A stretch of 64,000 nt of DNA from a virus (taxonomy: Duplodnaviria > Heunggongvirae > Uroviricota > Caudoviricetes). The notes under the pieces were generated by a model, which worked only from the letters and a program-made list of their open reading frames with translations, was not told where the DNA came from and ran no database searches. The stretch's first letter is position 1. Each line of letters opens with the position of its first letter. The translations under genes and the position numbers were made by a program. Where the stretch lies: positions 24,725-88,724 of IMG/VR virus record IMGVR_UViG_3300036790_000261; one strand, 5' to 3'. Shown here in pieces: positions 2,540 through 52,706 of this stretch.

Positions 2540-2610
2540 TGAACTAGGATTGAACCGATACCCGAGGCCGTAGTCTGCGGAGCCGGGGCGTACCTGACGA
2601 AGGATGCCCT

Positions 2611-2928
2611 GTGACCTCTATCCCGCTGTTTAACCGGCCCGACGAGTGGTTCTGCCCCAACTGCGATGTCACCGATGTCACCGCGCCGCTGCCGCCCGGC
2701 CAGTCCCGCTACCACCCCTGCCCCGGCCTGCACGGGCTCAACGCCCCGCTGATCCGCCAGGGCGTGAACGTCAAGGTAGAAGCGCACGAGCGCGAGGACT
2801 ACCTGAACGGCGACCTTCAGCAGACAGGCGACAACGGCCGTGTCTACATGAACGTTGAGGTCACCCGCGAGGACGGCACGGACGTTACTGTCTTCGCCGG
2901 GCTCGCCCGCGCAGAGATGAAGGTGTGA
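2611..2928 (+). CDS. hypothetical protein
   Basis: ORF with high GC3; ATG preceded by GAAGGATG region. Confidence 0.4.
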   Translation: MTSIPLFNRPDEWFCPNCDVTDVTAPLPPGQSRYHPCPGLHGLNAPLIRQGVNVKVEAHEREDYLNGDLQQTGDNGRVYMNVEVTREDGTDVTVFAGLARAEMKV

Positions 2929-3485: not shown

Positions 3486-4991
3486 GTGGCCACGCTTACC
3501 CGCGTTCAGCACAACAGCATGACGACGACCAGCACCACGGCCACAAACTTCAACACAACCCTTGGTGCCGGGGACACGGTCGGCAACCTGCTGGTAGTCA
3601 CCATTGTGCTGGGCACCAACGGGCTTACGCTGACAGCCCCCTCTGGCTGGGTTCAGGCGGGTTCCTCGGAGGTCGTTTCCGGGTCTCTCGATACCCGGAT
3701 CTATTACCTGGTGGTCAGCTCGGGCAGCGTCACTAGCTTCAACTGGAGCTTCGGCGCTACCGCGCACTCATTCGGCTGGACCATCGACGAGTGGAACAGC
3801 TCTTCCGGATGGCAGGCTAGCCCGGTAGACAGCACCGCCGGGGCCGTTCACACGTCACCGTCGACTGCGGTCAACTGCGGTACCCCGTCGGCGACGACCC
3901 AGGCGTCTGAGCTGTGGCTCGGCGTGCTGTCCTGGGCGAACAGCGGGCAGACGCTGTCGGGTGTGACCGGCGGCTGGTCGACCGGCGATACCGCTACGTT
4001 TACCGGCCAGAACACGCAGACGGCGTTCTTCCAGATCGCCACGACGACCGGCACCCCGAGCCTCGCCGCCACCATCAGCGCGTCCACGGTCAACGCGGGC
4101 GTTGTCGCCACCTTCATGCCCGTCGCCGGCACCACCGTTAACGCGGGGCTCGCCACGGCCACCGGGCTTGCGCTTCAGGTTCCGTCTAACGCCCGGCTCG
4201 CCACCGCTACAGGTACTGCCCTCCAGGTCCCGGCGCCTGCTGGCCTGGCTACGGCTGCCGGCGCTGCGTTCAAGCCGCTGTTCACCGTCCCGGCCCAGCT
4301 GGCGACCGCGACCGGCACCGCGCTGCAGGTTCCGTCTAAGGCGGGGCTCGCCCACGGCACCGGCAGTGCCTTCCAGGTTCCGGCCCCGGCTGGCCTTGCG
4401 CACGGCGCGGGCAGCGCGTTCACCCTCACCCCGTGGAAGGACACGGTCTTCGCGGGGCTGGCCGCGGGCTTCGCCGAGACGTTCCAGCCGACCCCGCGCA
4501 TCCTGCGCACCCCGCTGAACCTGGGGGCGGTGCTGACCGAGGTCACGGCAGACGGCTTCCTGCGTGTAGCCACCGCTGATGCTACGTTTACCCTCGCGGA
4601 CTACGGGGCTACCCTGGCACTAGCTAACTTCGGCGCAAGCCTGACGGGATGGACGATGCAGACGGCCCCGCTGACTCTTAACGAGTTCAACGACGTCACC
4701 ATCAGTATCACCGTGACGCAGAACGGCAGCCCGCTCAACCTGACCGGCGACACGCTTAACCTGCTGCTGAAGACGGCGCCGAACACCCCGGACTCCAGCG
4801 CGCTGATCTTTTCCTCGGCTGGCGGGTCCCCCGCGATCGTCATCACCAACGCAGCTGGCGGCCTCGCTACCGCGATCATCCCGAACACCGACCTCGACGC
4901 CGAGACCTACACGTTCTACCGGCTCGACGTGGTCAGCGGCGGCCTGACCAACACCACGCTGTACGGCAGCGTCGTCTGGATCTCGCTATGA
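3486..4991 (+). CDS. hypothetical structural protein with six ~16-aa tandem repeats (AGLATATGTALQVPSx)
   Basis: Repeat block at nt ~4141-4440; Thr-rich N-terminus. Confidence 0.45.
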   Translation: MATLTRVQHNSMTTTSTTATNFNTTLGAGDTVGNLLVVTIVLGTNGLTLTAPSGWVQAGSSEVVSGSLDTRIYYLVVSSGSVTSFNWSFGATAHSFGWTIDEWNSSSGWQASPVDSTAGAVHTSPSTAVNCGTPSATTQASELWLGVLSWANSGQTLSGVTGGWSTGDTATFTGQNTQTAFFQIATTTGTPSLAATISASTVNAGVVATFMPVAGTTVNAGLATATGLALQVPSNARLATATGTALQVPAPAGLATAAGAAFKPLFTVPAQLATATGTALQVPSKAGLAHGTGSAFQVPAPAGLAHGAGSAFTLTPWKDTVFAGLAAGFAETFQPTPRILRTPLNLGAVLTEVTADGFLRVATADATFTLADYGATLALANFGASLTGWTMQTAPLTLNEFNDVTISITVTQNGSPLNLTGDTLNLLLKTAPNTPDSSALIFSSAGGSPAIVITNAAGGLATAIIPNTDLDAETYTFYRLDVVSGGLTNTTLYGSVVWISL

Positions 4992-6043: not shown

Positions 6044-6553
6044 ATGCGCGAGGTCCAGTTGCACGGGAAGGTAGCCGCCGGACGTGTCGCCCGGGTCGAC
6101 GCCGCTGACTACGAAGAGCTGATGCAGTACCGCTGGCTCGGCTGGGAAAAGCCAGCGAGCGAGTATCGAAGGTCTAACGGGCCCTACGCGTGCCGCCAGT
6201 ACCGGGTGGACGGCAAGAGCGTGCTGCTGTTCATGCACACGTTTCTCACAGGCTGGAGGCGGACAGACCACATTGATCACGACGGGCTGAACAACCAGCG
6301 GTACAACCTGCGCGAGACCACTACGGCTCACAACGAGCACAATTCCCGGGCACGGATCAACACGTACTCCAGGTATAAGGGTGTCACCTGGTCGAAAGCC
6401 TCGCGGAAGTGGCAAGCTGGCATCAGAGTAGACGGACACTTGTACTACCTCGGTCAGTTCACTGACGAGAAGGAAGCCGCTCAGGTGTACGACACAGCTG
6501 CTATGCGTGAGTTTGGGCCACACGCCGTTTTCAACTTCCCGGAGGGCAAGTGA
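6044..6553 (+). CDS. HNH homing endonuclease with AP2 DNA-binding domain
   Basis: HIDHDGLNNQRYNLRETTTAHN HNH motif; YRGVTWSKASRKWQAGIRVDGHLYYLGQFTDEKEAAQVYD AP2 domain. Confidence 0.75.
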   Translation: MREVQLHGKVAAGRVARVDAADYEELMQYRWLGWEKPASEYRRSNGPYACRQYRVDGKSVLLFMHTFLTGWRRTDHIDHDGLNNQRYNLRETTTAHNEHNSRARINTYSRYKGVTWSKASRKWQAGIRVDGHLYYLGQFTDEKEAAQVYDTAAMREFGPHAVFNFPEGK

Positions 6554-8194: not shown

Positions 8195-8653
8195 GTGTCG
8201 AACATCACCGTCGTGCGCGAGGCCCTGGCCACCCAGATAGGGCAGCTCGCGTTCCCGGCGCTGCGGTCCCTGCCGGAGATGGAAGGGCAGGTCAACCCGC
8301 CGGTCGGGATCGTCATGCTGGGCGCTGCGAACTACGGCACCACCTTGCAGGGCGCGACCGGGTTCCTCGGCGGCGGCGTGACGATCGCCCCGACGGACAT
8401 CGCCCTTGACTACCTGATCCTGGTAGCCCAGGCGTCGACGGTTGAGCGGTTCGAGGCTGCGCTAGCCGCCTGGCTCGGCTTCGAGAATGACGCGACCGCG
8501 GTGTCCGTGCCGGCTGCCGTTGCCGCAGACTCCTCGCTGGGCGGTACTGTCGCCTGGTGCGTCGCGAACTCAGCGGACCGGCCCGGCCCTGTTGAGTGGA
8601 ACGGCGTGCACTATTTCGGTACCCGCATTCACTTCAGCGTGTCCCTCCAGTAG
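8195..8653 (+). CDS. hypothetical structural protein
   Basis: Position between head-tail genes and major tail protein. Confidence 0.4.
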   Translation: MSNITVVREALATQIGQLAFPALRSLPEMEGQVNPPVGIVMLGAANYGTTLQGATGFLGGGVTIAPTDIALDYLILVAQASTVERFEAALAAWLGFENDATAVSVPAAVAADSSLGGTVAWCVANSADRPGPVEWNGVHYFGTRIHFSVSLQ

Positions 8654-9825
8654 AAGGAAGTTACGGCCGGCCGAGAGCGCTTCGGTCAACTAGGAGGTGG
8701 TGCCGGGGTGGCTCGTATCTTGCTAGTTCACCCGGGTTTAGCCCGGACTTTTCGGTTGCTGACGTCTACCGGGGCTGGGAAAAAGCGCTTCGGAAGCTCG
8801 GCCACACGGTCATGGCCTTCAATACCAATGACCGCCTGACTTACTACGGGCACGCCCGGATGCCCGACCACGACAAGCCGGTGTGCGAGGTGTGTGACCA
8901 GGTCCCGACGCACCAGGCCCTTGACGGTGACGGCATCAAGCAGCTGGGCATGGACGGCCTGTACAAAGAGCTGTACCTGTTCTGGCCGGACGTGGTGTTC
9001 TTCGTCTCCGGGTTCTACATGACCCCGGCGATGCTGCAGGTGATCCGCACCCGGCGGCACAAGATCGTCATGCTGCACACCGAGAGCCCCTACCAAGATG
9101 AAGAGCAGATGCAGCGCGGTCAGTTTGCTGACCTGAACCTGCTGAACGACCCGGCGAACCTCGAAGCGTGGAAAGAACTCGACGTCCCCGTTGCCTACAT
9201 GCCGCACGCTTACGACCCGGACGTGCACTACCCCGACTGGCGCAGCGACCGCTACGAAGCTGACTTCGCCTTCATCGGCACCTTGTTCAAGAGCCGGGCT
9301 GAGTTCTTCAGCAAGATGGACTTCACGGGCCTGAACGTCGCGTTCGGCGGGGGTGGCTGGGACATCGCCCTGCACGACTACCCCGAGCTAGTGAACACCG
9401 TGGTTGACGTACAGCGGAACACCCGGCTAATCGACTACCTCGCCCACCCGCTAGACTCCTGCGTCGGAAACGACGAAACCGCGGACACCTACCGCAAGAC
9501 CAGGGTCGGCATTAACTTTTACCGGCGCGAAGGTGAAGACAGCCAGGCGCAAGGCTGGGCGATGGGACCGCGCGAGATCGAGATGGCCGCCTGCGGGCTG
9601 TTCTTCCTGCGCGACCCGCGGCCCGAGTCCGACGAGGTGCTCGGGCACATCCTGCCAGCGTTCGGCTCGCCGGAAGAGGCGTCAGAGCTGCTGCACAGCT
9701 GGATCGGCTACGGAAACCGCCGGGTGTACGCGGCTGAGCGCGCCTACAACGCGATCGCGGCCCGCACGTTCGGCAACAACGCTCGCGCGGCACTGAACCT
9801 GATGGAAGAGGCGGGCATCTTGTGA
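8596..9825 (+). CDS. glycosyltransferase-like protein (GT1/CgeB-like); start uncertain (ATG 8596 or ATG 8812)
   Basis: C-terminal region resembles CgeB/GT1-like glycosyltransferase fold; no GTG/TTG between 8596 and 8812 in frame. Confidence 0.4.
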   Translation: MERRALFRYPHSLQRVPPVEGSYGRPRALRSTRRWCRGGSYLASSPGFSPDFSVADVYRGWEKALRKLGHTVMAFNTNDRLTYYGHARMPDHDKPVCEVCDQVPTHQALDGDGIKQLGMDGLYKELYLFWPDVVFFVSGFYMTPAMLQVIRTRRHKIVMLHTESPYQDEEQMQRGQFADLNLLNDPANLEAWKELDVPVAYMPHAYDPDVHYPDWRSDRYEADFAFIGTLFKSRAEFFSKMDFTGLNVAFGGGGWDIALHDYPELVNTVVDVQRNTRLIDYLAHPLDSCVGNDETADTYRKTRVGINFYRREGEDSQAQGWAMGPREIEMAACGLFFLRDPRPESDEVLGHILPAFGSPEEASELLHSWIGYGNRRVYAAERAYNAIAARTFGNNARAALNLMEEAGIL

Positions 9826-9937
9826 GCATAGATATTTGCGGGAACCAGTGGGCCGATTCCGCTAACGACGGGCATCACCAGCGTCATGTCTGCGGGGAGG
9901 AAACAGACGGCAGTGACCACACGCACGTGTGCGCCTC

Positions 9938-10207
9938 ATGCGGGGGGACGAAGTGATCTGCAAGAGCTGCCGGGACGCTGCGGCGCTGCTGCCTGAGGAA
10001 GAAGTTATCTACCAGCACCTTGACGGACGGCCGCAGGAAATGCTGAGCGGTCCCGAAGCGGCCCGGAAGATGCACGCCCAGTGCCCCGAGGTCGTCCGCA
10101 GGCAGGCCGGGAACCTGACCGCCGTCGAGCTTGTCGGGTCACCCTGGTGTGAGTGCCAACATATCGTCCCTGTTCTCCGGCCTGCGCTGGCGCCTACACT
10201 TAAATAG
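9938..10207 (+). CDS. small Cys-containing hypothetical protein
   Basis: ATG ORF with good GC3. Confidence 0.3.
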   Translation: MRGDEVICKSCRDAAALLPEEEVIYQHLDGRPQEMLSGPEAARKMHAQCPEVVRRQAGNLTAVELVGSPWCECQHIVPVLRPALAPTLK

Positions 10208-10260
10208 CAGCAGCCGTGGCCTGATCGCCCCAGGAGCCGGACCAGTCTCATTTTGAGAGG
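10207..10260 (+). promoter_or_regulatory. conserved upstream element copy 1 (GCAGCAGCCGYGGCC...GGAGCCGGMCAGT..TCATT..AGAGG)
   Basis: ~54-nt motif ending 9 nt before ATG of major tail protein; second copy at 12187-12233. Confidence 0.4.
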
Positions 10261-10269
10261 GTTCCGCTT

Positions 10270-10722
10270 ATGGGCCGTATCCATGGCCGTAACGGCATGG
10301 TGTACATGTCGATCCTGTCGACCGGCGCCGCGCAGCCGCTGGCGTTCGTTAGCGACTGGACGATGAACTTCACGGTCGCGAAGGTCGACGTCACTGCGCT
10401 CGGCGACACCAACCTCGTCTGGGTCGCGGGCCTGCCCGACGCCTCCGGTGACTTCACCGGCTTCATGGACACGGCGACCAGCCAGACCTACCAGTCGGCC
10501 GTCGACGGCCAGCCACGCAACTTCTACCTGTACCCGACACTGGTTGCCGTCAACGGCGGCCCTGGCAACTCGACGGTCAGTCCCGGCCAGTACTTCTACG
10601 GAACCATCCTTCCTGACTTCAGCGTGTCCGGTGGCGTTGCCGCTGCCGTCACGATGAAGTCGACGTGGAACGCCGCGTCTACCGTGGCGCGGTACCCGGC
10701 TAACGGCGTTCCCGGCACGTGA
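10270..10722 (+). CDS. major tail (tube) protein
   Basis: WTMNFTVAKVDVTALGD ... DASGDFTGFMDT ... NFYLYP pattern typical of siphovirus major tail proteins; sits upstream of chaperone pair and tape measure. Confidence 0.6.
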   Translation: MGRIHGRNGMVYMSILSTGAAQPLAFVSDWTMNFTVAKVDVTALGDTNLVWVAGLPDASGDFTGFMDTATSQTYQSAVDGQPRNFYLYPTLVAVNGGPGNSTVSPGQYFYGTILPDFSVSGGVAAAVTMKSTWNAASTVARYPANGVPGT

Positions 10723-10827
10723 CATTAGGACGGCCGCTTTCCAGGCAACGGAAAGCGGCCGTCTGCCGGTCACCTCATGTAGGGCGCCCTCGACAGCTCT
10801 GACCCTATATGAGACAGGACTAAACCC

Positions 10828-11328
10828 ATGCCCCCACGCAAGACCCGCCAGGTGGCGCCCGTTACTGACGCGGAAATCGCAGACACTGCGGAAACCCTCA
10901 ACCCAGCCGTGCCGCAGGACACGGTGCCTGAGGCGTTTAAGCCGAAGCGCGCCCGTGCTGCCCGCCGGGTTCAGTCGGCGACCGGTGACCCGAAGGTCCG
11001 GCTGCCTGAGGGCAAGCGCGCCGTCGAGGTCGCGGACGGGGTGCTGACGGCGGCGATCGCCGGGCGCAGCTTCCGGCTGACGGAGACGGTTGGCCTGATG
11101 CCGCTGATGGAGTGGGTCGCGGCGTCCGAAGGGGTCGACACCAGCAACGTGCCGACGATGCTCAGCTTCTACCGCGTGCTGCAGGACCTGGTGCATGAAG
11201 ACGACTGGGTGGCGTTCCGGGGGCACACCCGCGAGCAGAAGTGCGACGACACGGAGCTCATGGCGTTCCAGGCAGCGGCTATGGAAGCGCTCGCCGCGCG
11301 CCCTACCAGGCGGCCCGCAACCTCCTGA
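10828..11328 (+). CDS. tail assembly chaperone (G-like)
   Basis: Position between major tail protein and tape measure; acidic C-terminus. Confidence 0.55.
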   Translation: MPPRKTRQVAPVTDAEIADTAETLNPAVPQDTVPEAFKPKRARAARRVQSATGDPKVRLPEGKRAVEVADGVLTAAIAGRSFRLTETVGLMPLMEWVAASEGVDTSNVPTMLSFYRVLQDLVHEDDWVAFRGHTREQKCDDTELMAFQAAAMEALAARPTRRPATS

Positions 11329-11798
11329 GGTGGCTGCTCGGGCACTGGGCGAAGGTGAACGGCGACTTCCTGCGGGCTAGCGGGCACGGGCTAGAGGAGC
11401 TGGACGTGCGGGAGATGTGCGACGCTGCCTACTCCGCGATCGTGGCGGACGTTGAACGGAACTTCTACGCCCAGGTCGCGGCCGGAGCGCAGTGGAAGGA
11501 CAGCACGGACCCGCTCGGCGACACCATTGAGCGGCTGGAGGAGCGCCTCGGGCTGCGTGAGGACCCGGAGGCGATCGCCCTGGCGATGCACAAGGCGTTC
11601 ATGCTGTCCCAGGGCAAGGAGTGGGACGAGACGCCGGTCGGGGCGGGCAGCGGGCAGTGGTGGGACCAGGATGTGGAGTTCAGCGACATGAGCGACCTCG
11701 ACCAGGAAGCGAAGCGCCGCACCGCCGCCGAAACCAACCGGGGCCTGTTCGCGAAGAACCTGAAGCCGAAGAACCTGAAGCCGAAGGAGACGCTGTGA
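11241..11798 (+). CDS. tail assembly chaperone extension (T-like), probably made by -1 frameshift from 10828 ORF
   Basis: ORF in -1 frame overlapping last 88 nt of the G-like gene; canonical G/GT synteny; slippery site not identified. Confidence 0.4.
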   Translation: MRRHGAHGVPGSGYGSARRAPYQAARNLLRWLLGHWAKVNGDFLRASGHGLEELDVREMCDAAYSAIVADVERNFYAQVAAGAQWKDSTDPLGDTIERLEERLGLREDPEAIALAMHKAFMLSQGKEWDETPVGAGSGQWWDQDVEFSDMSDLDQEAKRRTAAETNRGLFAKNLKPKNLKPKETL

Positions 11799-11810
11799 CC
11801 TGGACACGCC

Positions 11811-12170
11811 GTGGCTAACTCGGTCAAGCTCGACCCCGCCGCGATCGAGGACCTGCTGAACTCCCCCGACGGGCCGGTGGGCCTAGTGATCGAGGAGCTG
11901 TCGGAGAAGGCCGCTGACATCGCCAAGATCCTCGTCCCGGTGATGAAGCGGCGCAAGTGGAACCCGCTGTACCAGTACGGGCCGCCTGGGGTGACTAGCG
12001 CGAGCATCCGGGCATCCGGGTTCCGCTACAACAAGCTCGGCCAGCTGTACTCCGGGGTAAACGTGAATTACGGGCCCACGCTGTTCCTGCAGCGGCCTGC
12101 CCGGCAGATCCACAGCCCGCAGTACATGTTCATGTCCCGGGCGCTAGACATCGTCACGGCCCTGGGATAA
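11811..12170 (+). CDS. hypothetical protein
   Basis: ATG ORF, good GC3. Confidence 0.4.
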   Translation: MANSVKLDPAAIEDLLNSPDGPVGLVIEELSEKAADIAKILVPVMKRRKWNPLYQYGPPGVTSASIRASGFRYNKLGQLYSGVNVNYGPTLFLQRPARQIHSPQYMFMSRALDIVTALG

Positions 12171-12186
12171 CACCGTAGAGTTATCG

Positions 12187-12233
12187 CAGCAGCCGCGGCC
12201 CGTCACCGGGAGCCGGCCAGTTCATTCAGAGGA
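12187..12233 (+). promoter_or_regulatory. conserved upstream element copy 2
   Basis: Aligns with 10207-10260; overlapped by 3' end of minus-strand HNH gene. Confidence 0.35.
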
Positions 12234-12767
12234 AGGGGGCAGGTGGCCCGGCTGCGCACGGCGCTTGTTTGCCTGCTGTTCCTTCCGCGTCGCCCAGCGC
12301 ACGTTACCCGGCTCGTAGTTCCCGTCGTTGTTGACCCGGTCCAAGGTCAGCTTCGGGTCCGGCTTCAGCCCGATCAACTGCTCGATCTCTGCGGCGAAGG
12401 TTCCGAAGTACCGCCACGCCAAGCAAACAGTGATGCCCCTGCCGCCGTAGTTCCGGTAGGCCAGCTGCTTCGGGTTGAAGCAGCGGTTCATCATGCCCGA
12501 CCAGGTTACGTACAGCGGGTGCGTACGCGTCAGGCCGTGCGTGGTCTTGTCCCGCTTGTTCGCTTCTGCCGTTCGAATGCCGTTGGCAACAGCCTGCGCG
12601 CGAACACGCGCTTGCTCTTCCGGGCGCTGTCGAGCCGCCTTGACCGCTGCGCGCTGAGTGCACCAGCACACCTGCGTGCTCCCCTTGAGGAGCTGCGTGA
12701 TCAGGGTTTCGTAAACGTTTCCGCAGTCGCAGAGCATGCGGGCGTAGCGCTTACGGTTTCGCCTCAC
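12222..12767 (-). CDS. HNH homing endonuclease
   Basis: Close paralog of 29233 gene (HPLYVTWSGMMNRCFNP...YRNYGGRGITVC...DRVNNDGNYEPGNVRWATRKEQ); opposite strand to surrounding late genes. Confidence 0.75.
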   Translation of the reverse strand: MRRNRKRYARMLCDCGNVYETLITQLLKGSTQVCWCTQRAAVKAARQRPEEQARVRAQAVANGIRTAEANKRDKTTHGLTRTHPLYVTWSGMMNRCFNPKQLAYRNYGGRGITVCLAWRYFGTFAAEIEQLIGLKPDPKLTLDRVNNDGNYEPGNVRWATRKEQQANKRRAQPGHLPPSSE

Positions 12768-13116
12768 CTCCGGCTCAACAACGACAGCTGGGCCGAAGCG
12801 CTGGCCTGTACTGACAGTCTGCGTCTCCGTGTCCCCTCTTACCGTATTTCGTCGCCTATCGTACGCGACGACCGAGGCGCTCAGCGCACGGGAGGGGGGT
12901 GGTAGGGCGTGGCTAGGTTGATTGGCGACGCATATTTAAATAGTCATCTATCCGCAGACCGACCAGTTCGGCCCGCAGCTAGAGGCCGCCGTCGGCAAGT
13001 GGACGAAGTCGCTGCGGCCGAACGTCAACGTCACCCCGCAGCTGGACAAGTCCGGCATCGCTAAGATCGAGGCTGACCTCAAGGCCGCGAAGGCGAACAT
13101 TGACGCCTACGTCACC

Positions 13117-16100
13117 TTGTCGGCTGCGTCAGAGGCAAAGGTCCAGGCTCAGCTGGACGCCTTGCACACGAACTTCACCCTCGGCACGAAGATTGACCCG
13201 GTAACGCTCGCCGCAGACAAGGCGAGCCTTCAGGCGTACCTCGACCGGAACATCGTTGCAGCCCCGATCAAGACAGCGCTTGACCCGGCATCGCTCGCGG
13301 CGTCGAAGGCAAGCATCGAAGCCTACATGTCCGGGATACCAGCCGGCCTGGACTTCAAGCTTGACCCGGTGAAGCTCCTCGGGGTCAAGGCGGGTATCGA
13401 CCGGTTCCTGTCTTCGAACACGGTGACCATTCCGGTTCAGGCCAATACCACCCAGGCAGTCAGCCGGCTAGAAGGCCTGGAAGCGGACACCTCCGTCCTG
13501 CAGACCCGGCTGATGAACCTGCGGGCAGAAGTGAACGACGTCGGCGCTGAGGCGAAGATCGCCGCGCTGCAGGTGCAGGCCGCCGCGTTCGCCAAGACCC
13601 TGGCCGGCGCCGGAAAGGGCGCGGACTTCGAGCCGCTGGAAGCCTCGCTGCTCGGCATGCAGTCTTCGTACGCGAAGCTGATCGCCGCCCAGGAGGCCGA
13701 GGACGAGGAGATCAAGCGGCAGACCGGTTTCTTCGGGGCGCTCGGGCTAGCCGGGCCCGGCTCGCTGATCCACATCACCGACATCCTGAACGCTTCCCTA
13801 CCCGCGGTGAAGCTGTTCGGCGGCGCGATCGGTGACATGTACGCGACGATCCGCGGCGGCGACGCCGAGCTGCCGACGGTCGCTAACCACCTGTTCAACC
13901 TTGCCAGCTCCGCGCACCTGACCGCTGAGGCGGCGATCGAGTTCACCGCGATCTGGGCTCCGGCAATTATCGCGGTGACCGCGTTCGGCCTGGCCGCTAC
14001 CCCGACGGTCATCACCATCGGCAAGCAGCTGCAGAACATGAACACCGCGGCCAAGGGCACCGGCCAGGCGTTCGCGTCCCTGGCGACCCAGGGGGAGCAC
14101 GTCACCGCGGCGGTTAAGCCAGCCGTGCTGGAACTGTTCGGTGAGGGGCTTGAGGCCCTGAAGAACGACTCGGGCACGCTAGGGCCGATCCTGGCTGCCC
14201 TGGGCAGCGGGTTCGACCGGCTGGGCGCGCAGGCAGTTGTCGCATTCGGCAGCGGCGGGTCCGGTGGCATCTTCAAGTCCGGCAGCGCCGACGCACTGGC
14301 CCTGGCTAACTCGTTTACCGCGCTCGGGTCAATCGCGGGGACGTTTTTCAAGCTGGTCCCCGGGTACGCCGAGATCCTGCTCGGCTTCGGCAATGACGTA
14401 TTGGGTGCTTCGGCAGACGTGCTCAAGTTCGTCGAGCCGGTACTGAAAATCGGCGTCGCCCTGCACGGCGCCATCTTCTACGGCGGCCTGTTCGGCACCG
14501 CTGTTGGCGCAGGACTTAACAAGCTTGTCCCGGTTGCCGCGAGCGTAGCCGGGGGCATCGCTAACCTAGCCGGGAAGTTCGAGCTTCTCGGCGGCGAGTC
14601 CGGCAAGCTGGCAACCGGCGCGGCTGATGCGGCAACCGCCCTTGACGGTATCGCCGGCGGCCCGGTCATCGTCGGCCTGGCGCTGCTAGCTGGCGCGGTC
14701 GCGGCTGTCGTGCTTTACATGAAGGCGGCTAGCGACTCGGCGGCGGCATTCAACAAGTCGATTCAGTCGACGGTGCAGTCAGCGAGCGTGCTGAACCTGC
14801 AGAAAGCGATTACGACCGGGCTGACTGAGACTACGGTCCAGTACACGGCTGCGCTGAAAAACGTCGCGCAGGCAAACAACACAGCAGCTGCCTCCGCCGG
14901 GAGCGTTCAGTTCCGGTACTCAGGCGTAACCACCGCGCAGCAGGCGGCTACCACGGCAGCCGGCGAGTACCAGGGCGCGCTGAGCCAGCTGACCACCCAG
15001 CAGACGAACGTTAACAGCAACCTCCAGGCGCTAGCCGACACTTTTCACACGACGCTCCCCGGCGCACTCGCCATCGCCAACGGCGCGCAGATTACCAGCA
15101 ACCAGCTCATGGGCTCCGGTGCGCAGAACATCGCCACCATCAAGGCGCAAGCGGTAGGTTACGCCGATCAGCTGGCCGTGATGACCGCAGGCACCGGCAC
15201 GCTGAACCAGGCGCTGAACGCGCTGAGCGTCACCCAGTCGGCACAGGTTACTGACGCGCAGAAGCTTGCCCAGGCGTACGCGTCGTGGATCGGGATCGTC
15301 ACCGGCGGGGACAGCGCGTTCACCTCGTTCGAGCAGTCGCAGCAGACCCTGGTAGACACGCTCGGCGGCAAGGTAACGCCCGCTGTCGTCACGGCGACGA
15401 CTGCCTCGACTAGGGCCGGGCAGTCCATCACCGCCCTGGGCGGGACCAGTTCGACGGCGAGCTCGTCGCTGACCAAGCTAGCCAAGGGCGGCAGCGACGT
15501 CACCACCTCGCTGTCGAACACGGCCAAGGGCGGCCAGGACGTCACTAATTCGCTGGACACCACGACGAGTGCGACGACGAAGGCCGCCAGCGCTGCGGAC
15601 ACCCTGTCGGTCAAGGTCGGGAACATCACCGAGAAGTTCGACCTGGCCGGCGCGGCGATGAACGGCACGTCGGTTGCGTCACTAGCCGCCCGGCAGGCGT
15701 TTGACCAGCAGATCGTGTCGGCAACCAGCCTGTACGGCGCCTTGCAGACCATGGCGGCGGCTAGCGGGAATAACGCGACCGCGCAAGTAGCGCTAGCTAA
15801 GTCTGGCAAGGACCTGGTCGCGCAGATGCTGCCGCTAGCTGCTGGCAGCAAGGAGGCGACGGCTGAGGTTTACGCCCTGGCGCAGATCGCCGGGTACGCC
15901 GGCCCGGACAGCTTCCAGAAGCTCGCCCAGTGGGTCGGCAATACTTCGAACGCCGAGTCTGACCTCAACACGCAGCAGACGATCCTTACGCTGAGCACGG
16001 CAAACCTGACCGCGGCGGCGAAGAACCTGGCAACGGCGGTCAGCCAGGAGATCACTCAGGCTGAAGCAGCGGCGATCGCCAAGACCGAGGACTTCAGCAA

Positions 16101-17997
16101 CACCACCCTGAAGCTAGCGCAGGCGTTCCAGGCTAGCGATGACTCGGCGAACTCCGCGGTGACCACTCTGTCCGGCACGTTTTACTCGTCGCTGATCAAG
16201 GCCGGAGATCAGACCAAGGACGCCACGCAGCAGGTAAACGCGTTCCTTAGCCAGCTCGGCGCGTCGCCTGAGGTGATCTCCCAGGTAGACGCCAGCCTGG
16301 CCAAGCTGCCGGACGGCACCCAGCAGGCTGTCAACGCGATGAAGAGCCTGAACGACGCGTCCCAGGCGAATCTAGCCACCCTGCGGTCGATCCCTGGGAC
16401 GCTCGCTACTAACACAGCTAGCTACAACGAGCTGTTCAACGCGATCGTCAAGGAAGACCAGGGGCTCGTCAACAACACCAGCCAGGCGGACACGACGAAG
16501 GCGGCGTTCATCGCATTCGCCGAGCAGGGCCTGAACCTGACCTCGTCGGCGGCGGCGAAACTGTGGGCGACGCAGAACGCGCAGAACCTGGTCGCGACCG
16601 CGTCCAAGGCGAGCACCACGGAGAACGCGTTCATCGCCATGGCCAAGAGCGGCCTGAACCTGTCGACGTCGTCGGCGCAGACCCTGTGGAACACGCTGCG
16701 GCTGCAGTACCTGGACACCCTGGTCACCAAGGGCAAGGGAGCGGAGAGCCAGTTCATCGCCCTCGCCAAGAGCGGCCTCGACCTGACCACGTCATCCGCC
16801 ACGCAGCTGTGGAACACCCTCAAGCAGCAGTACCTGGACACCCTGGCGTCCAAGTCGACTGAGACCGAGAAGTCGTTCGAGGCGACGGCTAAGCAACTCG
16901 GGCTAACGAAGACCGCTGCTGACCAGCTGTGGACTTCGATGCACACACTTGCCGCGGGCAGCCCGTACAGCGCGAACGTCAACGCGACGATCAGCGCGAC
17001 GGGTGAGGTCCAGGCCATCGAGTCGTCTGGCGCCGCGGCGAACATCGTCAACGCGGCACTCGGGGACCTGCACTTTTCCGCAGCGGGCGGTACGGTGCCC
17101 GGCGGAGTTCACGGGCAGGACTCGGTGCACGCCGTTCTCGCTCCCGGTGAGCTGGTCATCCCGAGCCAGCACGCGCCCAAGTTCGCCGACATGGCCCGTA
17201 AGGCGAGCATCCCCGGGTTCGCGGCCGGCGGTACCGTCGCGGCGGGTATTGACGCGATCGTGCCGACCTCGGTCAAGGACACCGGGCAGTTCGCGACGAG
17301 CACGATCGCGGCTTTCGTGAAGAACGTGCAGGGCGCGATGACTGCCCTGCTGGCCGCTCCGGGGAACACCCTCGCGTACGAGCCCGTCGTCCTGAACGTC
17401 ATGAAGATGCTGGACATCCCGCTGACCGACCTGTCCGCGATCATGCAGCAGATGGCGACAGAGTCCGGGGGTAACCCGCTGGCGGTCAACAACTCGGACA
17501 GCAACGCGGCGGCAGGCACCCCGTCCACCGGCCTTTTCCAGGTGATCGCCCCGACGTTCGACGCGTTTGCCGGGCCGTTCCGCAACACGGGGCCGTTCCT
17601 GAACGGCGTGTCAGTTAACCCGACCGCCAACACGTACGCAGGCTTGAACTACGCGATTCACCGCTATGGCATCGGCAACCTGACCAGCGTCCTCGGCCAG
17701 GGGCACGGCTACTCGTCGGGCGGGATGGTGAACGAGCCTGTCCTCGGGGTGGGCCTGAACTCGGGAACGCCCTACAGCTTTGCCGAGCGGGGCAGTGAGT
17801 ACGTCGGGCCGATCAGCGGCAACGGAACCTCGAACTCCGGGCTGCCCGGGATGTCGTCGTACCAGGCGAGCACGCTGATCAGCCTCATGCAGCAGCAGAA
17901 CAAGCTCCTCGCGCAGATGCCGTACAGCCAGGCGCAGGCAATCAACCAGGCGAACGCGACCGGGGTCAGAAGGGGGTATTTCGCGACAAGCGGCTGA
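13117..17997 (+). CDS. tape measure protein with C-terminal SLT lytic transglycosylase motif (5' end likely upstream, frame open back to 12940)
   Basis: 1626-aa repeat-rich alpha-helical protein; ESGGNPLAVNNSD...GLFQVI SLT motif; first canonical start is TTG 13117 but repeats continue upstream. Confidence 0.8.
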   Translation: MSAASEAKVQAQLDALHTNFTLGTKIDPVTLAADKASLQAYLDRNIVAAPIKTALDPASLAASKASIEAYMSGIPAGLDFKLDPVKLLGVKAGIDRFLSSNTVTIPVQANTTQAVSRLEGLEADTSVLQTRLMNLRAEVNDVGAEAKIAALQVQAAAFAKTLAGAGKGADFEPLEASLLGMQSSYAKLIAAQEAEDEEIKRQTGFFGALGLAGPGSLIHITDILNASLPAVKLFGGAIGDMYATIRGGDAELPTVANHLFNLASSAHLTAEAAIEFTAIWAPAIIAVTAFGLAATPTVITIGKQLQNMNTAAKGTGQAFASLATQGEHVTAAVKPAVLELFGEGLEALKNDSGTLGPILAALGSGFDRLGAQAVVAFGSGGSGGIFKSGSADALALANSFTALGSIAGTFFKLVPGYAEILLGFGNDVLGASADVLKFVEPVLKIGVALHGAIFYGGLFGTAVGAGLNKLVPVAASVAGGIANLAGKFELLGGESGKLATGAADAATALDGIAGGPVIVGLALLAGAVAAVVLYMKAASDSAAAFNKSIQSTVQSASVLNLQKAITTGLTETTVQYTAALKNVAQANNTAAASAGSVQFRYSGVTTAQQAATTAAGEYQGALSQLTTQQTNVNSNLQALADTFHTTLPGALAIANGAQITSNQLMGSGAQNIATIKAQAVGYADQLAVMTAGTGTLNQALNALSVTQSAQVTDAQKLAQAYASWIGIVTGGDSAFTSFEQSQQTLVDTLGGKVTPAVVTATTASTRAGQSITALGGTSSTASSSLTKLAKGGSDVTTSLSNTAKGGQDVTNSLDTTTSATTKAASAADTLSVKVGNITEKFDLAGAAMNGTSVASLAARQAFDQQIVSATSLYGALQTMAAASGNNATAQVALAKSGKDLVAQMLPLAAGSKEATAEVYALAQIAGYAGPDSFQKLAQWVGNTSNAESDLNTQQTILTLSTANLTAAAKNLATAVSQEITQAEAAAIAKTEDFSNTTLKLAQAFQASDDSANSAVTTLSGTFYSSLIKAGDQTKDATQQVNAFLSQLGASPEVISQVDASLAKLPDGTQQAVNAMKSLNDASQANLATLRSIPGTLATNTASYNELFNAIVKEDQGLVNNTSQADTTKAAFIAFAEQGLNLTSSAAAKLWATQNAQNLVATASKASTTENAFIAMAKSGLNLSTSSAQTLWNTLRLQYLDTLVTKGKGAESQFIALAKSGLDLTTSSATQLWNTLKQQYLDTLASKSTETEKSFEATAKQLGLTKTAADQLWTSMHTLAAGSPYSANVNATISATGEVQAIESSGAAANIVNAALGDLHFSAAGGTVPGGVHGQDSVHAVLAPGELVIPSQHAPKFADMARKASIPGFAAGGTVAAGIDAIVPTSVKDTGQFATSTIAAFVKNVQGAMTALLAAPGNTLAYEPVVLNVMKMLDIPLTDLSAIMQQMATESGGNPLAVNNSDSNAAAGTPSTGLFQVIAPTFDAFAGPFRNTGPFLNGVSVNPTANTYAGLNYAIHRYGIGNLTSVLGQGHGYSSGGMVNEPVLGVGLNSGTPYSFAERGSEYVGPISGNGTSNSGLPGMSSYQASTLISLMQQQNKLLAQMPYSQAQAINQANATGVRRGYFATSG

Positions 17998-18075: not shown

Positions 18076-18148
18076 GCGCGTGTAGCTCAGCGGATAGAGC
18101 ACCTGCCTACGGAGCAGGGTGCCGGGGGTTCGATCCCCTCCACGCGCA
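18076..18148 (+). tRNA. tRNA-Arg (anticodon ACG)
   Basis: Acceptor GCGCGTG/CACGCGC, D-loop TAGCTCAGCGGATAGAGC, anticodon loop CTACGGA, T-arm GGGGGTTCGATCCCC. Confidence 0.85.
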
Positions 18149-18151
18149 CTC

Positions 18152-18249: not shown

Positions 18250-21200
18250 GTGCCGGCCTACTCAGGCAGCTCCTTCCCGTACTGGATGACGATCCAGGAC
18301 AACGGCTCTACGGCTAACGCCGGCGCTGTGTCTGAGAACATCCCGGTCACGGTCGGCACCAGCTACACGTTCACCGTCTCTGCTGCCTACTCCGGGTTCT
18401 TCTCCGGCGGCGTCAAGCTCACCCTGGAGTGGTTCACCTCCGGCGGGACGCCGATCAGCACGGTGACCGCGACCAGCGGCGCGATGTCTCCCGACGAGAT
18501 CGTCACCTTTTCTACGGCCTCGACCGCAGCCCCGTCTAGCGCAGCGTTCGCGATCGCCACCGTTGCGCTGAACGGGCTGCCCGGCGAGGCGAACGTGCTG
18601 TCGGTCTTCGCGGCGGCCGTCACCCCGGCAGGCTCGGTGCCGGTCAACCTGAACTACGCGTTCACCTGGACGTTCTGGCCGTGGACGCCGTCTAACAGCG
18701 CAACCCTCGGCTGGCAGGCCGACCAGTTCCTGCTGAACAACTCCGACTCGCTCACTCTGGCGCACACGATCGAGCTGATGGGCGGCGCCGGCGGTGTCTC
18801 CTGCCAGGCGATCCCCGAGCTACTCGACTCTAACGGCGTCGGCCCCCGTTACCGCATTCTCGCGCCCCCGTCGCTGAACTCCGCGGCGTTCGGCTACGAG
18901 TCGTCTTACGACCTGAACGCCCCGCAGCCGACCCAGGACGTCGTCGCGTCCATGCTGCTCGACGGCGAGCGCCCCTTCGGTACAAGGGCATCCAACAGGA
19001 CCATCTCGCTGCCGGTGATCATCTTCGGCACGCTCGCCGGCGGCATGCGCCAGGTTCTGGCGGCCCGCGAGTACCTGATGTCGCTGATCGACCAGCAGAC
19101 CTGGGAGATCGCCTGGACCCCGGCCGACACCGGTAAGCCGCTGATTTACGACGCGTTCCGGGCGCTGCCGTCCGTCCCGGTCTACGGCATGAACCACTCG
19201 GCTGGCGGTGCCGCGAGCAACTCGACGGTCGGCCGGGCGAACTACCCGATCGCGCTGATCACGCTGACGGTCCAGGCGCTGCCCTACGGGCGCTCAGACA
19301 TCGACGGCGTGCAGACCCTGCCGGTCAGCAACAGCCTGATCAACGCGCCCGTGCCGCCCGGGGCGCAGCTTCTCGACAACTTCTCCGTGGTCACCCCCGG
19401 CATGGGCTGGGTGCAAGACGAGTCCAAGTTCGTTCAGGGCGGTACCGCAAGCATTCGCTACGACGCGCCCGTTCCCCTGTCCAGCCCGTACCCGGCGGCT
19501 GTCTACGCGGCTGCGCTCAGCTCGCCGGTCAGCATCATGGGGCTGCCTGCAGTATCGGTCTGGCTCGGCCAGGCGTATGACACCCAGTGGCCCGCGGCGC
19601 CGACGTTTGCCTCTAACGTCACCCTGGCCTGGACGCTGCTGGACGGCAGCGAGCGCGCCCTGTCATTCTCGACGACTCACAATGCCGCGGCCTGGGGCGC
19701 GTCCCCGTCCACTCCCAAATGGACCCTGGTGTCAGCGCCGGTTCCGCAGGGGAACCAGAACTTCTCCTACGGGAACGTCGTCGCCTACTCAGTGCGGCTT
19801 ACCAACTGGGCCGGCTCGGGCAACACCGGCTTCGTCCGGATGCACGCCTGGCTGAACGACCTGACCGCCAACCCGCAGACCGTCGCCAACCAGGCCAGCC
19901 CCCGCGGCATCTTGTACAACCTGTTCTCACTGCCGGGCAGCGCGCGGGCGCCGGTCAACGTGCAGTGCCAGCTGCCCGCTACCGCGCCCGTCGTGCAGGA
20001 GATCACCAGTCCCGCGTCAGGCACCTGGATCGTGCCGCCCGCGGTGTACGCGCTGCAGGCTGAGGCGTGGGGCGGCGGCGGCAGCGGCGCTACCGTCAAC
20101 CAGTCCCGCCCGACGGCAGGCGCAGGCGGCGGCGGCGGTGAGTACGCGGCTGAGTCGCTGCTGGCAGTTGTCCCCGGGACGGCGATCCCCTACAGCCTTG
20201 GCGCCGGCGGCACCCCGTCCCAGATTCAGCAGACGGTCATCGACCAGACGGTGCCCGGCCTGCACAACTGGGTCGCCCCGGCGAACGTTACCTCCCTGCT
20301 GGTGGAGTGCTTCGGCGGCGGCGCGGCAGGCGCGGCGGGAGCTGGTGGCGGTGGCGCGGGCGGGTACTCGTCCTCGACCCTCACCGTCGTCCCCGGCACC
20401 TCTTACCTGATCTCCGTCGGCGCCGGCGGCATGGCGAACACGGGCACCACCTCGGCGGACAACGCTGCCCGCAACGGCGGTGCCTCCTGGTTCGGCGCGT
20501 CGACGGCGACCGGCCCGTCTAACGCGCTAGTCGCTGCCTCCGGCGGTACCTCACCGCAAACCGGAACCGCAAGCGGAGGCTCAGGCGGTAACAACGCCGG
20601 GTGCCCTGGCACGACGCAGTTCCCCGGTGGCAACGGCGGTCATGCCCCCGGCGGCGGCGGAGGCGGCGGCGGCGGCTGCGGCGGGCACAGTGGTCACGGC
20701 GGGCACGGCCGGGCGCCTAACGCCAACGGCAACGGCGCCGCCTGGTGCGGCAACGGCCAGGGCGGTAACGGCAACGGGCAGGGCGGCGGCGGCGGCAACG
20801 GCTCGTCCGCGCCCGGTACCCCGTCGGGCGGCAGTTCTCCCGGCGGCGGCGGCGGCGGCGGCTTCTGCGGCTCGTTCTTCCAGTTCGCCGCGCAGGCCGC
20901 GCAGGCAACCCCCGGCCAGGCGCAGGTCAACTACATGGGGGCCAACGGCGCCAACGGCATGGTGCAGCTGACCTACGCGATCGGCAACGGAAACCCGGTT
21001 AACGGCGGGGCGACCACCTTCGGCTCCAGCGCCACGACGGGCGTCACCGTGACTGCTAACGGCGGCTCCAGCGCAGCGATCAACGCGGCGACGGGCGCGG
21101 CGGGCGGTTCCGGCTCGGCGAACACGGTTCACGCGTCCGGGGGTGCGGGCGGGCTGGACACCGGTACCTCGATGGGCAGCTGGATGCTCGGCCCGTCGGT

Positions 21201-23484: not shown

Positions 23485-23498
23485 CGGGGGGTACCTGA

Positions 23499-26400
23499 GT
23501 GACCTCGACCCCCCCGAAGCCAAGCCTGCTCAAGTCCACCGCGCTCGCCCAGGCCACGGCGGTGGCCAACCGGCTGAACTCCCTGCTGCCCACGGTGCCG
23601 AGTGCCGAGTCGCCGGTCACCGTGTACCAGGCGGGCACCATCGGGGTGGGCGGGCAGCTGAGCGCGCCTACCTCGGTGTTCCCGGTCGGCACCGGCTATT
23701 ACGGGGTGTGGACGGCGCCGGACCTGAACGACGGCAAGCCGTACACGATGCAGGTGGAGTGCTTCGGCGGCGGCGGCGGCGGCGGGGGCGGGTCCTCCAC
23801 TTCGGGCGGCGGCGGCGGGGGCGGGGCTGAGTACGCCCGGGAGACCTCGTACCCGGTCAAGCCCGGCGTCAACTACGTCTACGTGGTGGGAGTACCCGGC
23901 TCGGCGGGCACGGCGAACAACGACGACAACCAGGGCGCGACCGCGGGCGGCACCGGGGGGCTGACCGTATTTGACATCGCCGGAAGCGGCGTCGCGGGCG
24001 GCGTGCAGGCCAACGGGGGCCAGGGCGGGGATGTCGGCAATACCGGCATCGGCGGGAACGGGGGCCTGGGCAGCTTCAACACCACTGAGTTCCAAGGTGG
24101 CCCGGGTGGTACCAACCTTCCAGGCGGCGGGGGCGGTTCCGGCGGCCAGGGCGGTACCGACAATCCCATCGCACTGCTGAACGCAGGGCTGCTGAGCTCG
24201 CCGCCGGTCGCCTGGTACCTGATGAACGACGCGTCGTCCAACGGGCAGCTGAACGACAACAGCGGCGACGACAACCCGGCTAACCCGGGCAGCTACGGCG
24301 GCGGCGGCCTCGCCTACGGGCAGCCGGGAGCCCCGTCCCAGGTCCCCGCGTACGTCAGCCCCGGCAACCCGCCGAGCTCCCCCAACCCGACGACCGCCGG
24401 AACCCAGCTGCGGTTCGTCCTCGCCCAGCTGAACCAGCAGTCCGGTTACGCGCTGTGCCCCGGCTTCGCCTTCTCCGGGCACCAGGTCACCGTCTCGGGC
24501 TGGGTGACCCCGGACCCGACGGGCACCTGGGGCAACACCGCGACCGGCTCGCGGGCGGTCATCGCCACTAACTGCACGGGGTACGCGAACTCCAGCACCG
24601 CGGGCGTCGCCCTGTACTTCAAGAACTCCGGCACCAGCGCTCACCCGAGCTGGACGCTGAACTTCTACTGCGCTAGCTCAGGCTCGCACCAGACGGTCAG
24701 CGTCAGCGTCCCGCCGGTCGCGAACACCCCGGTCTACGTGGCGGCCACCTTCAGCTCCGGCGCGATGACCGTGTACGTCAACGGCACCTCGGCGGGCACG
24801 GCCACCGCGGGCTTCAGCAGCCTGCCCGGCTTCCCGACGGTGCCGTTCGGCGTGACGCTGGGCGCGGACCCGCGGATCACCACCGACTGGTTCTTCGGCT
24901 ACATGTCCAACCTGTGGTTCTCGCCCGGCGTGCTGAGCTCAGCGGGCGTGACCCAGGCGTTCAGCGGCTCCGGCGGCAGCTCAACCGAGGGCGGGGCCGG
25001 CGGCGGCGCGTCGGGCGGGCCGGCGGCACTCGGCGGCGCCGGGGCGGCAGGCAGCGGGTCGACGGGCGGGGCCGGGGGGACACCCGCTACCCAGCCTGCG
25101 ACAGACGTCGGCCTGAACACCCCGGCCTCAGCGGGCATCGCGGGCGCGGCGGGTAACGCCGGCAACCCGGGTATCACCGGCGCGGCGGGCGCGGGCGGCG
25201 GCGGGGCAGGCAGCTCGACGTCACCCCCGAATATCGTCACCGTCCAGGTGCCGTTCGTCACGGCGGCCTCTTACTGCGGGACGGACGCGACCGGCGGCAG
25301 CGCGGGCACGGTGTACAACCCGGTCATCCAGGGCGCCACCGGGCGGCTGTTCACCGGCGGCCAGTCGCAGGACGCGGCATCGGGCTCCAAGAACTCTCTG
25401 CTGGTCCTGCCGCCCAGCCTGGCGGCCAGCCTGCAGCCGGGCAGCTTCACCGTGCTCCGGGTGACCCTGACGGTAACCAGCGCTAACCCGCAGGCGGCGC
25501 AGAACGCGCTGATGCAGGTCGGCTGGGCGGCCGACACGTTCCTGCCGATCACCTACGACGCGAGTGACACCGCGGGCTCGGCGGGCGTGGTGGAGATCCC
25601 GGCCGGGGCGTTCACCGTCACCGCGGACCTGACCGAGTCTCAGCTGGGCGCGTTCCTGCAAAACGGCGGCGCTAAGGCGCTGGTTCTCGGCCCTGGCCCC
25701 AGCCCGACCTTCGCCGCTTACAACTCCGACACCGCGGCTGACTTCTACACGGCTGTCTACGGGCCGGGCGCGGTAGACAGCGCGGGCAACAGCCTGGCCC
25801 CGTTCCTTACGGTCACCTACGCGCAGTCGACGACCGTGCAGCAGGGGTCGCCCGGCGGCGCGGGCGCGGTGCTGCTGACCTTCCTCAACCAGGCGCAGAC
25901 ACTGGTCGGCAACTGGACCGCCGCGGACGGCATCAACGCCTCCGGCGGCCAGCTCACTGAGACGACGGTCGTACTCGGCTCGACCTTGCAGGACGCTGCC
26001 CGGATGAACGCGATCCGCGAGCAGGTCAGGGCTGAGGTCAAGGCGGAGAACCGCGCGATGATCAGGGAGGCGATGGCCCGGCTCGGCTCGGTTCCGGGGG
26101 CGCCGGGCACCCTGCTCGGCTACACGGCGGGCATGACCACGGTTACCCAGACGACGCCGGGTACCTACACGTTCACCGTGCCTTCTGACGTCACCTCGCT
26201 GAGCGTCGCCTGCTGGGGCGCGGGCGCGGGCGCTACCGGGGGCAGCACCAGCCAGGGGCAGGGCGGCGGCGGCGGCGGCGCGTACGCGGGCGAGCCGAAC
26301 TACAACGCCGCCCCGGGTGACGTGCTCACTTACATTGTCGGGGCGGGCGGCGCCGGGGACCACGTCGGGTCGAATAATTCGCCGGACGGCGGGTTCAGCG

Positions 26401-51735: not shown

Positions 51736-51830
51736 CCTGGAACCCGGACCCCGGTTACGTGCTGATCTTGTCCGTTGTGTTCGCCGCGGCTGCCGCGACT
51801 GTCGCCCTGATGGTGCTGGGCGTTATCTGA
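51732..51830 (+). CDS. 32-aa single-TM peptide
   Basis: ATGA overlap with upstream gene; hydrophobic core. Confidence 0.3.
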   Translation: MTWNPDPGYVLILSVVFAAAAATVALMVLGVI

Positions 51831-51901: not shown

Positions 51902-51956
51902 GGGCAAGCGGGGCGCTCTGACCTTGGCGCGCGCAGAGAGGTTGGCCCCGCTTACG

Positions 51957-52091: not shown

Positions 52092-52107
52092 GCTCTTCCT
52101 CCGGGTT

Positions 52108-52698: not shown

Positions 52699-52706
52699 CC
52701 TGGTTA

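Follow-up and report, generated by a model that had tools for sequence, protein, structure and literature searches.

A conserved, strand-specific element with a promoter-like hexamer and a predicted leader fold upstream of tail genes in uncultivated soil phages

The stretch of DNA analyzed here (the window) comprises 64,000 nucleotides, positions 24,725 to 88,724, of the Caudoviricetes record IMGVR_UViG_3300036790_000261 in IMG/VR. It is a phage-like genome segment of ~65% GC, and no close relative was found among GenBank phages, either by DNA or by its major tail protein (MTP). A repeated element of ~50 nt lies on the plus strand upstream of two tail genes of this window, the MTP gene (10270–10722, plus strand; phrog_10528, E 9e-8; 58 + 62 related loci) and the tape-measure protein (TMP) gene, the body of which (12940–17997, plus strand; phrog_167, E 1e-26) is open from 12940. 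Upstream of copy 1 (10207–10260) is a Cys-rich open reading frame (ORF) of 92 amino acids (aa; 9929–10207, plus strand), and copy 2 (12187–12232) lies between a 119-aa ORF (11811–12170, plus strand; stop codon 12168–12170) and an HNH endonuclease ORF on the minus strand (12222–12767; phrog_374, E 2e-42). Both stretches had been proposed from the sequence in an earlier annotation (the original prediction), and their positions and block-by-block alignment were confirmed. The spacing of 8–10 nt claimed between each copy and a start codon also held, copy 1 ending 9 nt before ATG 10270 and copy 2 ending 9 nt before GTG 12243, and copy 2 does run into the 3' end of the HNH gene as described, the minus-strand HNH stop codon (12222–12224) sitting within it. 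In a local-alignment scan of the whole window on both strands with copy 1 as query (background mean 14.4, standard deviation 2.65, 2130 tiles), copy 2 was the best non-self match, scoring 40 as compared to 26 for the next best tile. The 15-mer GCAGCAGCCGYGGCC occurs exactly at 10207 and 12186 and nowhere else in the window.

Each copy is composed of the same series of parts. In copy 1, a −10-like hexamer, TACACT (10195–10200, plus strand), overlaps the last codons of the 92-aa ORF and is followed after 13 nt by box A, CCGTGGCC (10214–10221), a hairpin CCTG/CAGG (10220–10223 with 10231–10234) and box B, GGAGCCGG (10233–10240), which together make up a 5' module (10208–10246, plus strand) delimited by a covariance model score of 38.9 bits (model R1, described below), by its fold and by alignments. 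A 3' module follows (10241–10262, plus strand), a hairpin of the form ACC..UCUCA/UGAGA..GGU that contains the Shine-Dalgarno (SD) sequence GAGAGGG (10255–10261). In copy 2, the hexamer TAGAGT (12176–12181, plus strand) lies just past the stop codon of the 119-aa ORF and 11 nt before box A, CCGCGGCC (12193–12200); a hairpin CCCG-TCAC-CGGG is found between its boxes, box B is again GGAGCCGG (12209–12216), and the 5' module (12187–12222, plus strand; R1 score 31.6 bits) has orthologs in nine relatives. From the end of box B to the start codon are 29 nt in copy 1 and 26 nt in copy 2, with a separate purine-rich ribosome-binding site between. The original prediction further held that both copies are preceded by a TTAAATAG-like sequence that recurs near 12934. 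This is true of copy 1 (10200–10207) but not of copy 2, which is preceded by GTAGAGTTATC; the recurrence is present at 12936–12943, but inside the 5' coding sequence of TMP and not before a leader. Two occurrences of TTAAATAG in the window compare with 0.14 expected; the resemblance of the 12936 occurrence to the sequence before copy 1 was treated as coincidence because the match was noticed post hoc. A third promoter-like site at 12934 was rejected, that TTAAATAG lying within TMP codons (about codons 9–12).

To what extent this architecture is shared was apparent from related loci, of which a search with the MTP protein returned 58 from IMG/VR and 62 from metagenomes. The relatives originate from soil metagenomes, and the sole genome match was a metagenome-assembled genome of an uncultured Actinomycetota. 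Upstream of the MTP gene, ~30 distinct relatives (MTP 59–89% identical) exhibit the same order of parts: box A (CCGWGGCC), a segment of 8–38 nt of free sequence, box B (GGAGCCGG), a further 20–45 nt, a ribosome-binding site rich in purines, and the start codon. The covariance model R1, built from the sequences of 18 relatives, gave 37 + 37 = 74 matches in MTP-related loci, every one of them on the gene strand. The closest relatives, nine in number (L001–L006, L133, L134, and L184), carry a second copy 1.9–2.5 kb past the MTP start and directly before the TMP start, which is therefore the ortholog of copy 2 in the window. Both copies are thus kept across relatives despite diverged flanking sequence, and with compensatory changes. 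Additional copies precede a 138-aa ORF (L059:4599, on the same contig as L003), a 385-aa ORF (L044:789) and the chaperone gene of L133, where an HNH gene has come to lie between the MTP and chaperone genes (3896–4566) and an extra leader module (4511–4546) follows it. The element is a real, conserved, strand-specific cis-element, and the proposal that tail genes are preceded by a conserved element of the leader or promoter type is supported by the orthologous copies and by TANNNT at a fixed distance upstream of them. In the L010–L013 lineage, the usual TACCCT hexamer is followed ~60 nt upstream of the MTP start by the boxes in swapped order (GGAGCCGT ... ACGAGGCC); this order was seen before MTP in that lineage only, and the fold does not clearly rebuild the motif. 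A regular-expression scan of IMG/VR for the two boxes yielded, as the best among 80 loci checked, chance matches to the antisense of tRNA and of Gly repeats. A small Zn-ribbon ORF upstream of MTP is found in the closest relatives only, and is for that reason uninformative as a candidate trans factor.

The search for further copies advised in the original prediction, besides the copies before MTP and TMP in relatives, also yielded weaker, intergenic ones in the window at 2556 and 61952. A probable third copy (2545–2613, plus strand; R1 18.4 bits, E 0.08, model hit 2556–2592) consists of TAGGAT (2545–2550), box A (2562–2569), a hairpin, box B (2579–2586), an SD-pairing hairpin, and GTG 2611, the start of a 105-aa ORF. 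A weak fourth candidate (61932–61973, plus strand; R1 15.2 bits, E 0.4, model hit 61952–61973) has TAGACT, box A (61952–61959), a minimal hairpin and box B (61966–61973), and lies 61 nt before the ORF of a DUF559-type nuclease (62035). R1 also gave one antisense coding match in the window, regarded as chance. That the resemblance between copies 1 and 2 is itself a product of chance in GC-rich DNA, or of a recent duplication without function, can draw on the GC-richness of the region and on box B alone not being over-represented; however, the score of copy 2 (40) exceeds a background maximum of 26, and both copies are orthologously conserved with compensatory changes, so that this explanation, of which the original prediction named the chance resemblance as a refuting outcome, is barely credible and may be taken as already refuted.

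Covariation supports a conserved RNA fold of the boxes and the segment between them. In 32 instances folded one by one, the segment between the boxes (with flanking CC and GG) almost always forms a hairpin, and in most of them the whole module folds as (((...((((loop))))...))). When 46 distinct sequences were aligned to the model, pairing was seen in 92% of cells. Variation within the helix is extensive and compensatory, as at pair 17–73 (UA 17, GC 9, AU 3, GU 3, UG 3, CG 1) and pair 18–72 (GC 23, UA 5, CG 3, AU 1, UG 1); the observed covariation was reached by 0 of 500 shuffles, and sliding the register reduced pairing to 6–57%. Copy 2 of the window itself has CCCG/CGGG as compared to CCUG/CAGG in its orthologs. 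At the base of the module, three pairs between CCG of box A and CGG of box B are nearly invariant, and covariation therefore does not prove them; they are plausible but not proven. Above them is a 3x3 internal loop, WGG opposite AGC, that is invariant except for W. An alternative register, pairing GGCC of box A with GG-A-GCC of box B, was rejected for canonical copies since its first variable pairs fail. Conserved structure with compensatory changes on one strand, as would be expected of a cis-regulatory RNA, was found for the variable helix. Rfam 15 covariance models run over the whole window brought only four tRNAs to their gathering score, and between 9800 and 13300 nothing overlapped either copy or the HNH/TMP junction at E <= 10. 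With respect to an intrinsic terminator or attenuator, neither leader hairpin is followed by a T-run and a scan listed nothing at these positions.

The same features bear on whether the site acts as DNA, i.e., as the operator of a dimeric DNA-binding protein, as a hairpin promoter used by a phage RNA polymerase, or as a site of HNH homing or recombination. Box A and the reverse complement of box B have 5 of 8 positions in common, and HNH genes adjoin copies in the window and in L133. However, the spacing of the boxes ranges about five-fold (8–38 nt), a variation that an RNA hairpin could accommodate but a rigid dimer bound to DNA could not. On the plus strand, i.e., on the sense strand only, G-U pairs are seen in both orders; the opposite strand would have A-C mismatches in their place. 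The ORFs scanned included no RNA polymerase, nine relatives have the TMP copy but no HNH gene there, and the HNH genes of L023 and L034 have no adjoining copy. A DNA-level site thus appears highly improbable.

A second hairpin is predicted in most leaders, in which a pyrimidine tract pairs with the SD purines and both arms change together (UCUC/GAGA, UUCC/GGAA, CUCUU/AAGAG, UCUCG/CGAGA, CUCC/GGAG, UCAC/GUGA, and CCUCCU/AGGAGG).

In 41 of 44 assessable instances, a TANNNT hexamer upstream of the boxes ends 10–16 nt before box A, as compared to a background of 0.0023 per nt for this pattern. The hexamer occurs in 15 variants (TACACT, TACCCT, TAGAGT, TAAAGT, TAGTGT, TAGGGT, TAGGAT, TAGACT, TACGCT, TATCGT, TAACCT, TACTGT, TAAACT, TAAGAT, and TATGAT), all of which keep T1, A2, and T6, the pattern of variation that −10 elements of actinobacteria are known to have. 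Downstream of the hexamer, purines are common at +7 and +8, so that the RNA 5' end would lie 4–7 nt before box A. Five MTP relatives without boxes (L018, L019, L021, L029, and L030) retain the hexamer ~36 nt before the start codon, and the hexamer is on this account older than the structured module. In the −35 region (16–19 nt upstream), just a weak TGTTC was seen 18 nt upstream in the MTP set, within coding sequence, and a sigma-70 consensus scan, unhelpful in this GC-rich genome, returned nothing at the element. The hexamer has the properties expected of the −10 element of a putative sigma-A/sigma-70-type promoter. Promoter activity, and the "highly expressed" status given to the tail genes in the original prediction, are inferences from the sequence.

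The hexamer would be incidental if the element were instead a ribonuclease processing site in a long late transcript, which would leave hairpin-protected 5' ends on the MTP and TMP messages. Upstream genes abut copies 1 and 2 with no gap or terminator between, the L133:4511 copy has no hexamer at the usual distance, and the box sequences are conserved beyond the needs of pairing, all in keeping with processing. The fixed distance of TANNNT in 41 of 44 instances, its variation exactly like a −10 element and its persistence in relatives without boxes argue against it, and a processing site is considered unlikely.

Directly after the MTP stop codon is a GC-rich hairpin of 15 bp (10728–10764, plus strand; −36 kcal/mol) without a T-run, and nearly all relatives have a GC-rich hairpin of 12–19 bp, likewise without a T-run, at the same place. 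With the leader upstream and this hairpin 3' of the gene, the MTP gene is therefore bracketed. Beyond the hairpin are two ORFs that overlap each other and occupy the tail-chaperone position (10828–11328 and 11241–11798, plus strand), and the TMP gene. This arrangement would also suit an antitermination RNA of the put type (phage HK022) or resembling nut, the stem-loops of which modify polymerase to read through the post-MTP hairpin into the chaperone and TMP genes. The element would be promoter-proximal, its two stem-loop modules contain invariant nucleotides that are unpaired or lie in an internal loop, and essential tail genes do lie beyond a strong hairpin. However, that hairpin need not terminate, as it lacks a T-run; the TMP gene has its own copy and hexamer, for which there would be no need if it were served by read-through from the MTP copy; and no boxA-like CGCTCTT is found in either leader (10150–10270 and 12150–12245). 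Antitermination was accordingly judged quite unlikely.

The element is probably an actinobacterial-type promoter joined to a structured 5' leader RNA for tail genes. Several observations weigh against this reading. That transcription begins here at all, and at which nucleotide, is inferred. In close relatives the C-terminal codons of the small upstream ORF (the 92-aa ORF) overlap the copy 1 hexamer, part of the conservation of which may there be coding-driven, and the extra copy at L133:4511 is the one noted above without TANNNT at the usual distance. The alignment behind the pair counts was fitted to the model, the 32 per-sequence folds being independent of it, and basal pair 7–81 exhibits one compensatory U-A (L043) as compared to three breaks. 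Single-sequence folds of both window copies are no more stable than shuffles, and the minimum-energy folds of the two differ from each other. The signal of the SD hairpin is modest (mean z −0.98 versus shuffles in 45 instances) and the hairpin is weak in copy 2 of the window. Finally, the strong conservation of the box sequences themselves points to a specific partner.

At the HNH/TMP junction, the window departs from its relatives. The N terminus of TMP in relatives reads M/V-A-(G)-R-L-I-G-D-A-Y-I-V-I-Y-P-Q-T-D-Q-F. Downstream of copy 2 is the original TMP ribosome-binding site, AGAGGAAGGGGG, with the start GTG GCC CGG CTG (V-A-R-L; 12228–12254 in all, plus strand, start 12243–12254), which is identical to L005 and after which homology ends. 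Homology resumes at GTG 12909, GTG GCT AGG TTG ATT GGC GAC GCA TAT (VARLIGDAY), with synonymous differences; this second TMP start (12909–12939, plus strand) lies behind a new ribosome-binding site, GGGAGGGGGG (12890–12899). On either side of the HNH cassette (~12255–12908) there is thus a TMP start, GTGGCCCGGCTG at 12243 and its duplicate GTGGCTAGGTTG at 12909, the two differing synonymously only; GCGCACGG is found near both ends of the cassette (12254 and 12884), and the 654 bp between the two starts hold the HNH gene on the minus strand. The cassette has moved leader copy 2 ~650 nt away from the TMP gene and cut off the original start. The conserved HNH domain ends near residue ~168–171 of 181, and the last ~10–13 codons are read-through into sequence antisense to the old TMP start and to leader copy 2. 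The TMP leader is present in nine relatives with no HNH gene there, and the element is therefore not part of the HNH cassette. On the plus strand, the frame from GTG 12243 is open through the HNH antisense to TAG 12903–12905, 3 nt short of GTG 12909; because the window genome has many long antisense ORFs, no conclusion was drawn from this one. A group I intron carrying the HNH gene within TMP was rejected, there being no Rfam match and the duplicated start at 12909 explaining the junction without splicing.

In two distant relatives, minus-strand homologs of the HNH gene are found at the same junction (L034, 3773–4530) and between the chaperone and the next gene (L023, 7250–8010). In L023, too, a diverged duplication of the target, here the 3' end of the chaperone gene, flanks the insertion. 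This suggests a recurrent mode of insertion for such cassettes. Free-standing nucleases are abundant in the window genome, which also encodes the DUF559-type nuclease (62035–63036) and two further HNH genes (6044–6553 and 29233–29820). Past the second start, the window has a 4-nt insertion, TTAA (12936–12939), reading GCA TAT TTAA ATA GTC as compared to GCN TAY ATH GTC in six relatives, and the TMP body is therefore in the +1 frame relative to start 12909. In the frame of the body, no canonical start codon was found before TTG 13117. The sequence T-TTA-AAT is a −1 slippery pattern, yet a −1 shift runs straight into TAG. No closer relative by which to check the insertion was found in metagenomes or genomes, the best MTP identity being 88% for a partial match and 87% at full length; TTAA may stem from an assembly error, mark a defect or serve as a recoding site.

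Elsewhere on the plus strand, the tail terminator gene (8195–8653) and a glycosyltransferase-like ORF (8596–9825) lie upstream of the 92-aa ORF. Two giant ORFs (1744 and 1321 aa) with many GGC (glycine-rich) repeats lie 3' of TMP (18250–27464), a tRNA-Arg gene (18076–18149) is found between TMP and the first of them, and three more tRNA genes lie within 51829–56517. Dozens of units with a 38-nt period occur in intergenic stretches of the right-hand region (53770–59611), with a single further unit at 29824. Their core, TTGG..TTCGT, is conserved, their ends alternate between GGCCGGGGCG and GGCCCCGGCG, which are able to pair mutually, and they had no Rfam match.

The original prediction likened the element to an extended start-associated element. 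The start-associated sequence (SAS) of Cluster K mycobacteriophages is a 13-bp sequence, GGGATAGGAGCCC, which occupies the ribosome-binding site 3–7 bp from the start codon and occurs in 11–19 copies per genome, all before non-structural genes (PMC3203893). The arms of its extended form (ESAS) are conserved 17-bp inverted repeats, the differences of which do not support RNA pairing (PMC3203893). Like SAS, the element is a short, single-orientation repeat before start codons in actinobacteriophages, contains GGAGCC and combines a repeat element with a variable spacer upstream. In contrast, box B lies ~29–33 nt before the start (26 nt in copy 2) with a separate ribosome-binding site, there are 2–4 copies (in the 64 kb, two strong ones, before MTP and TMP, and two weak ones), and the secure copies precede tail or other virion-region genes, the weak candidate at 61952 preceding a nuclease ORF. 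Unlike the ESAS arms, the stem here is free in sequence and covaries. The SAS 13-mer had one 2-mismatch match in the 64 kb (52799), as compared to 2.0 expected, and none near the element. Membership in Cluster K SAS/ESAS was therefore rejected on consensus, position, copy number, gene class and the nature of the arms, and the original interpretation as a whole is partly supported.

In phage T7, the class III promoter phi10 is followed by the stem-loop 5' leader of gene 10, and the ompA leader is a 5'-terminal stabilizer hairpin. By analogy, the element would work most like the T7 phi10/gene 10 arrangement, a promoter with a 5'-terminal leader hairpin, plus an SD-masking hairpin: in both, a promoter (here a putative one) is followed by a hairpin that opens the mRNA of an abundant virion protein, and there is a 3' hairpin as well. 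The promoter here looks host sigma-A-like rather than of the phage RNA polymerase type, and no sequence is in common; in contrast to both T7 phi10 and ompA, the base of the hairpin has invariant boxes and an internal loop, and the second hairpin masks the SD sequence. HK022 put and lambda nut are promoter-proximal structured RNAs with conserved unpaired nucleotides that act in cis on a phage operon. The element resembles them as a putatively promoter-proximal structured RNA with conserved unpaired nucleotides (put being compared by description), but it has no boxA or boxB sequence, lies directly on the ribosome-binding region and comes as a separate copy for each target gene. Actinobacterial housekeeping promoters have a TANNNT −10 element and a weak −35 element. 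The hexamer here is like theirs in that T1, A2, and T6 are kept and the middle is free, purines lie 7–8 nt downstream and the −35 region is poorly conserved; it differs in that, in copy 1, the putative hexamer falls within the last codons of an upstream ORF. No account of the element turned up in literature searches; as a motif it is undescribed, yet of a familiar kind.

As a promoter with a structured leader, each copy would be a small expression cassette read on the plus strand. A sigma-A/sigma-70-type −10 element (TANNNT) would start transcription ~4–7 nt before box A, and the first ~35 nt of the mRNA would fold into the conserved module, with CCG of box A paired to CGG of box B and, above these basal pairs, the 3x3 internal loop, a helix starting CC/GG and a hairpin of free sequence and length. 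A second small hairpin would pair the SD purines with the pyrimidine tract just upstream. Most likely, the 5' module would protect the message, or would dock a factor that determines how stable the MTP and TMP messages are or how they are translated, and the SD hairpin would make translation depend on the state of the 5' module. Together with the strong post-MTP hairpin, the element would make MTP a separately controlled unit. The TMP gene of the window would now use its own ribosome-binding site and start. A more far-reaching and doubtful proposal is that the internal loop is the dock for a dedicated partner that switches the SD hairpin or polymerase, making the element a new class of riboregulator that times tail-gene expression in a clade of uncultivated actinobacterial phages; such a partner could be a late protein of the phage or a protein of the host, or, as is the case for put RNA, RNA polymerase itself.

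These findings describe a candidate for a new cis-regulatory RNA motif that is linked to a promoter signal and is specific to one clade of uncultivated, high-GC soil phages of Actinomycetota. In genomes with almost no annotation, the element would mark the boundaries of transcription units. The junction at TMP provides an example of an HNH cassette that cuts a gene off from its native leader. As a compact cassette of hexamer, 5' module and SD hairpin, the element may serve for asking how these phages set their high ratio of MTP to TMP.

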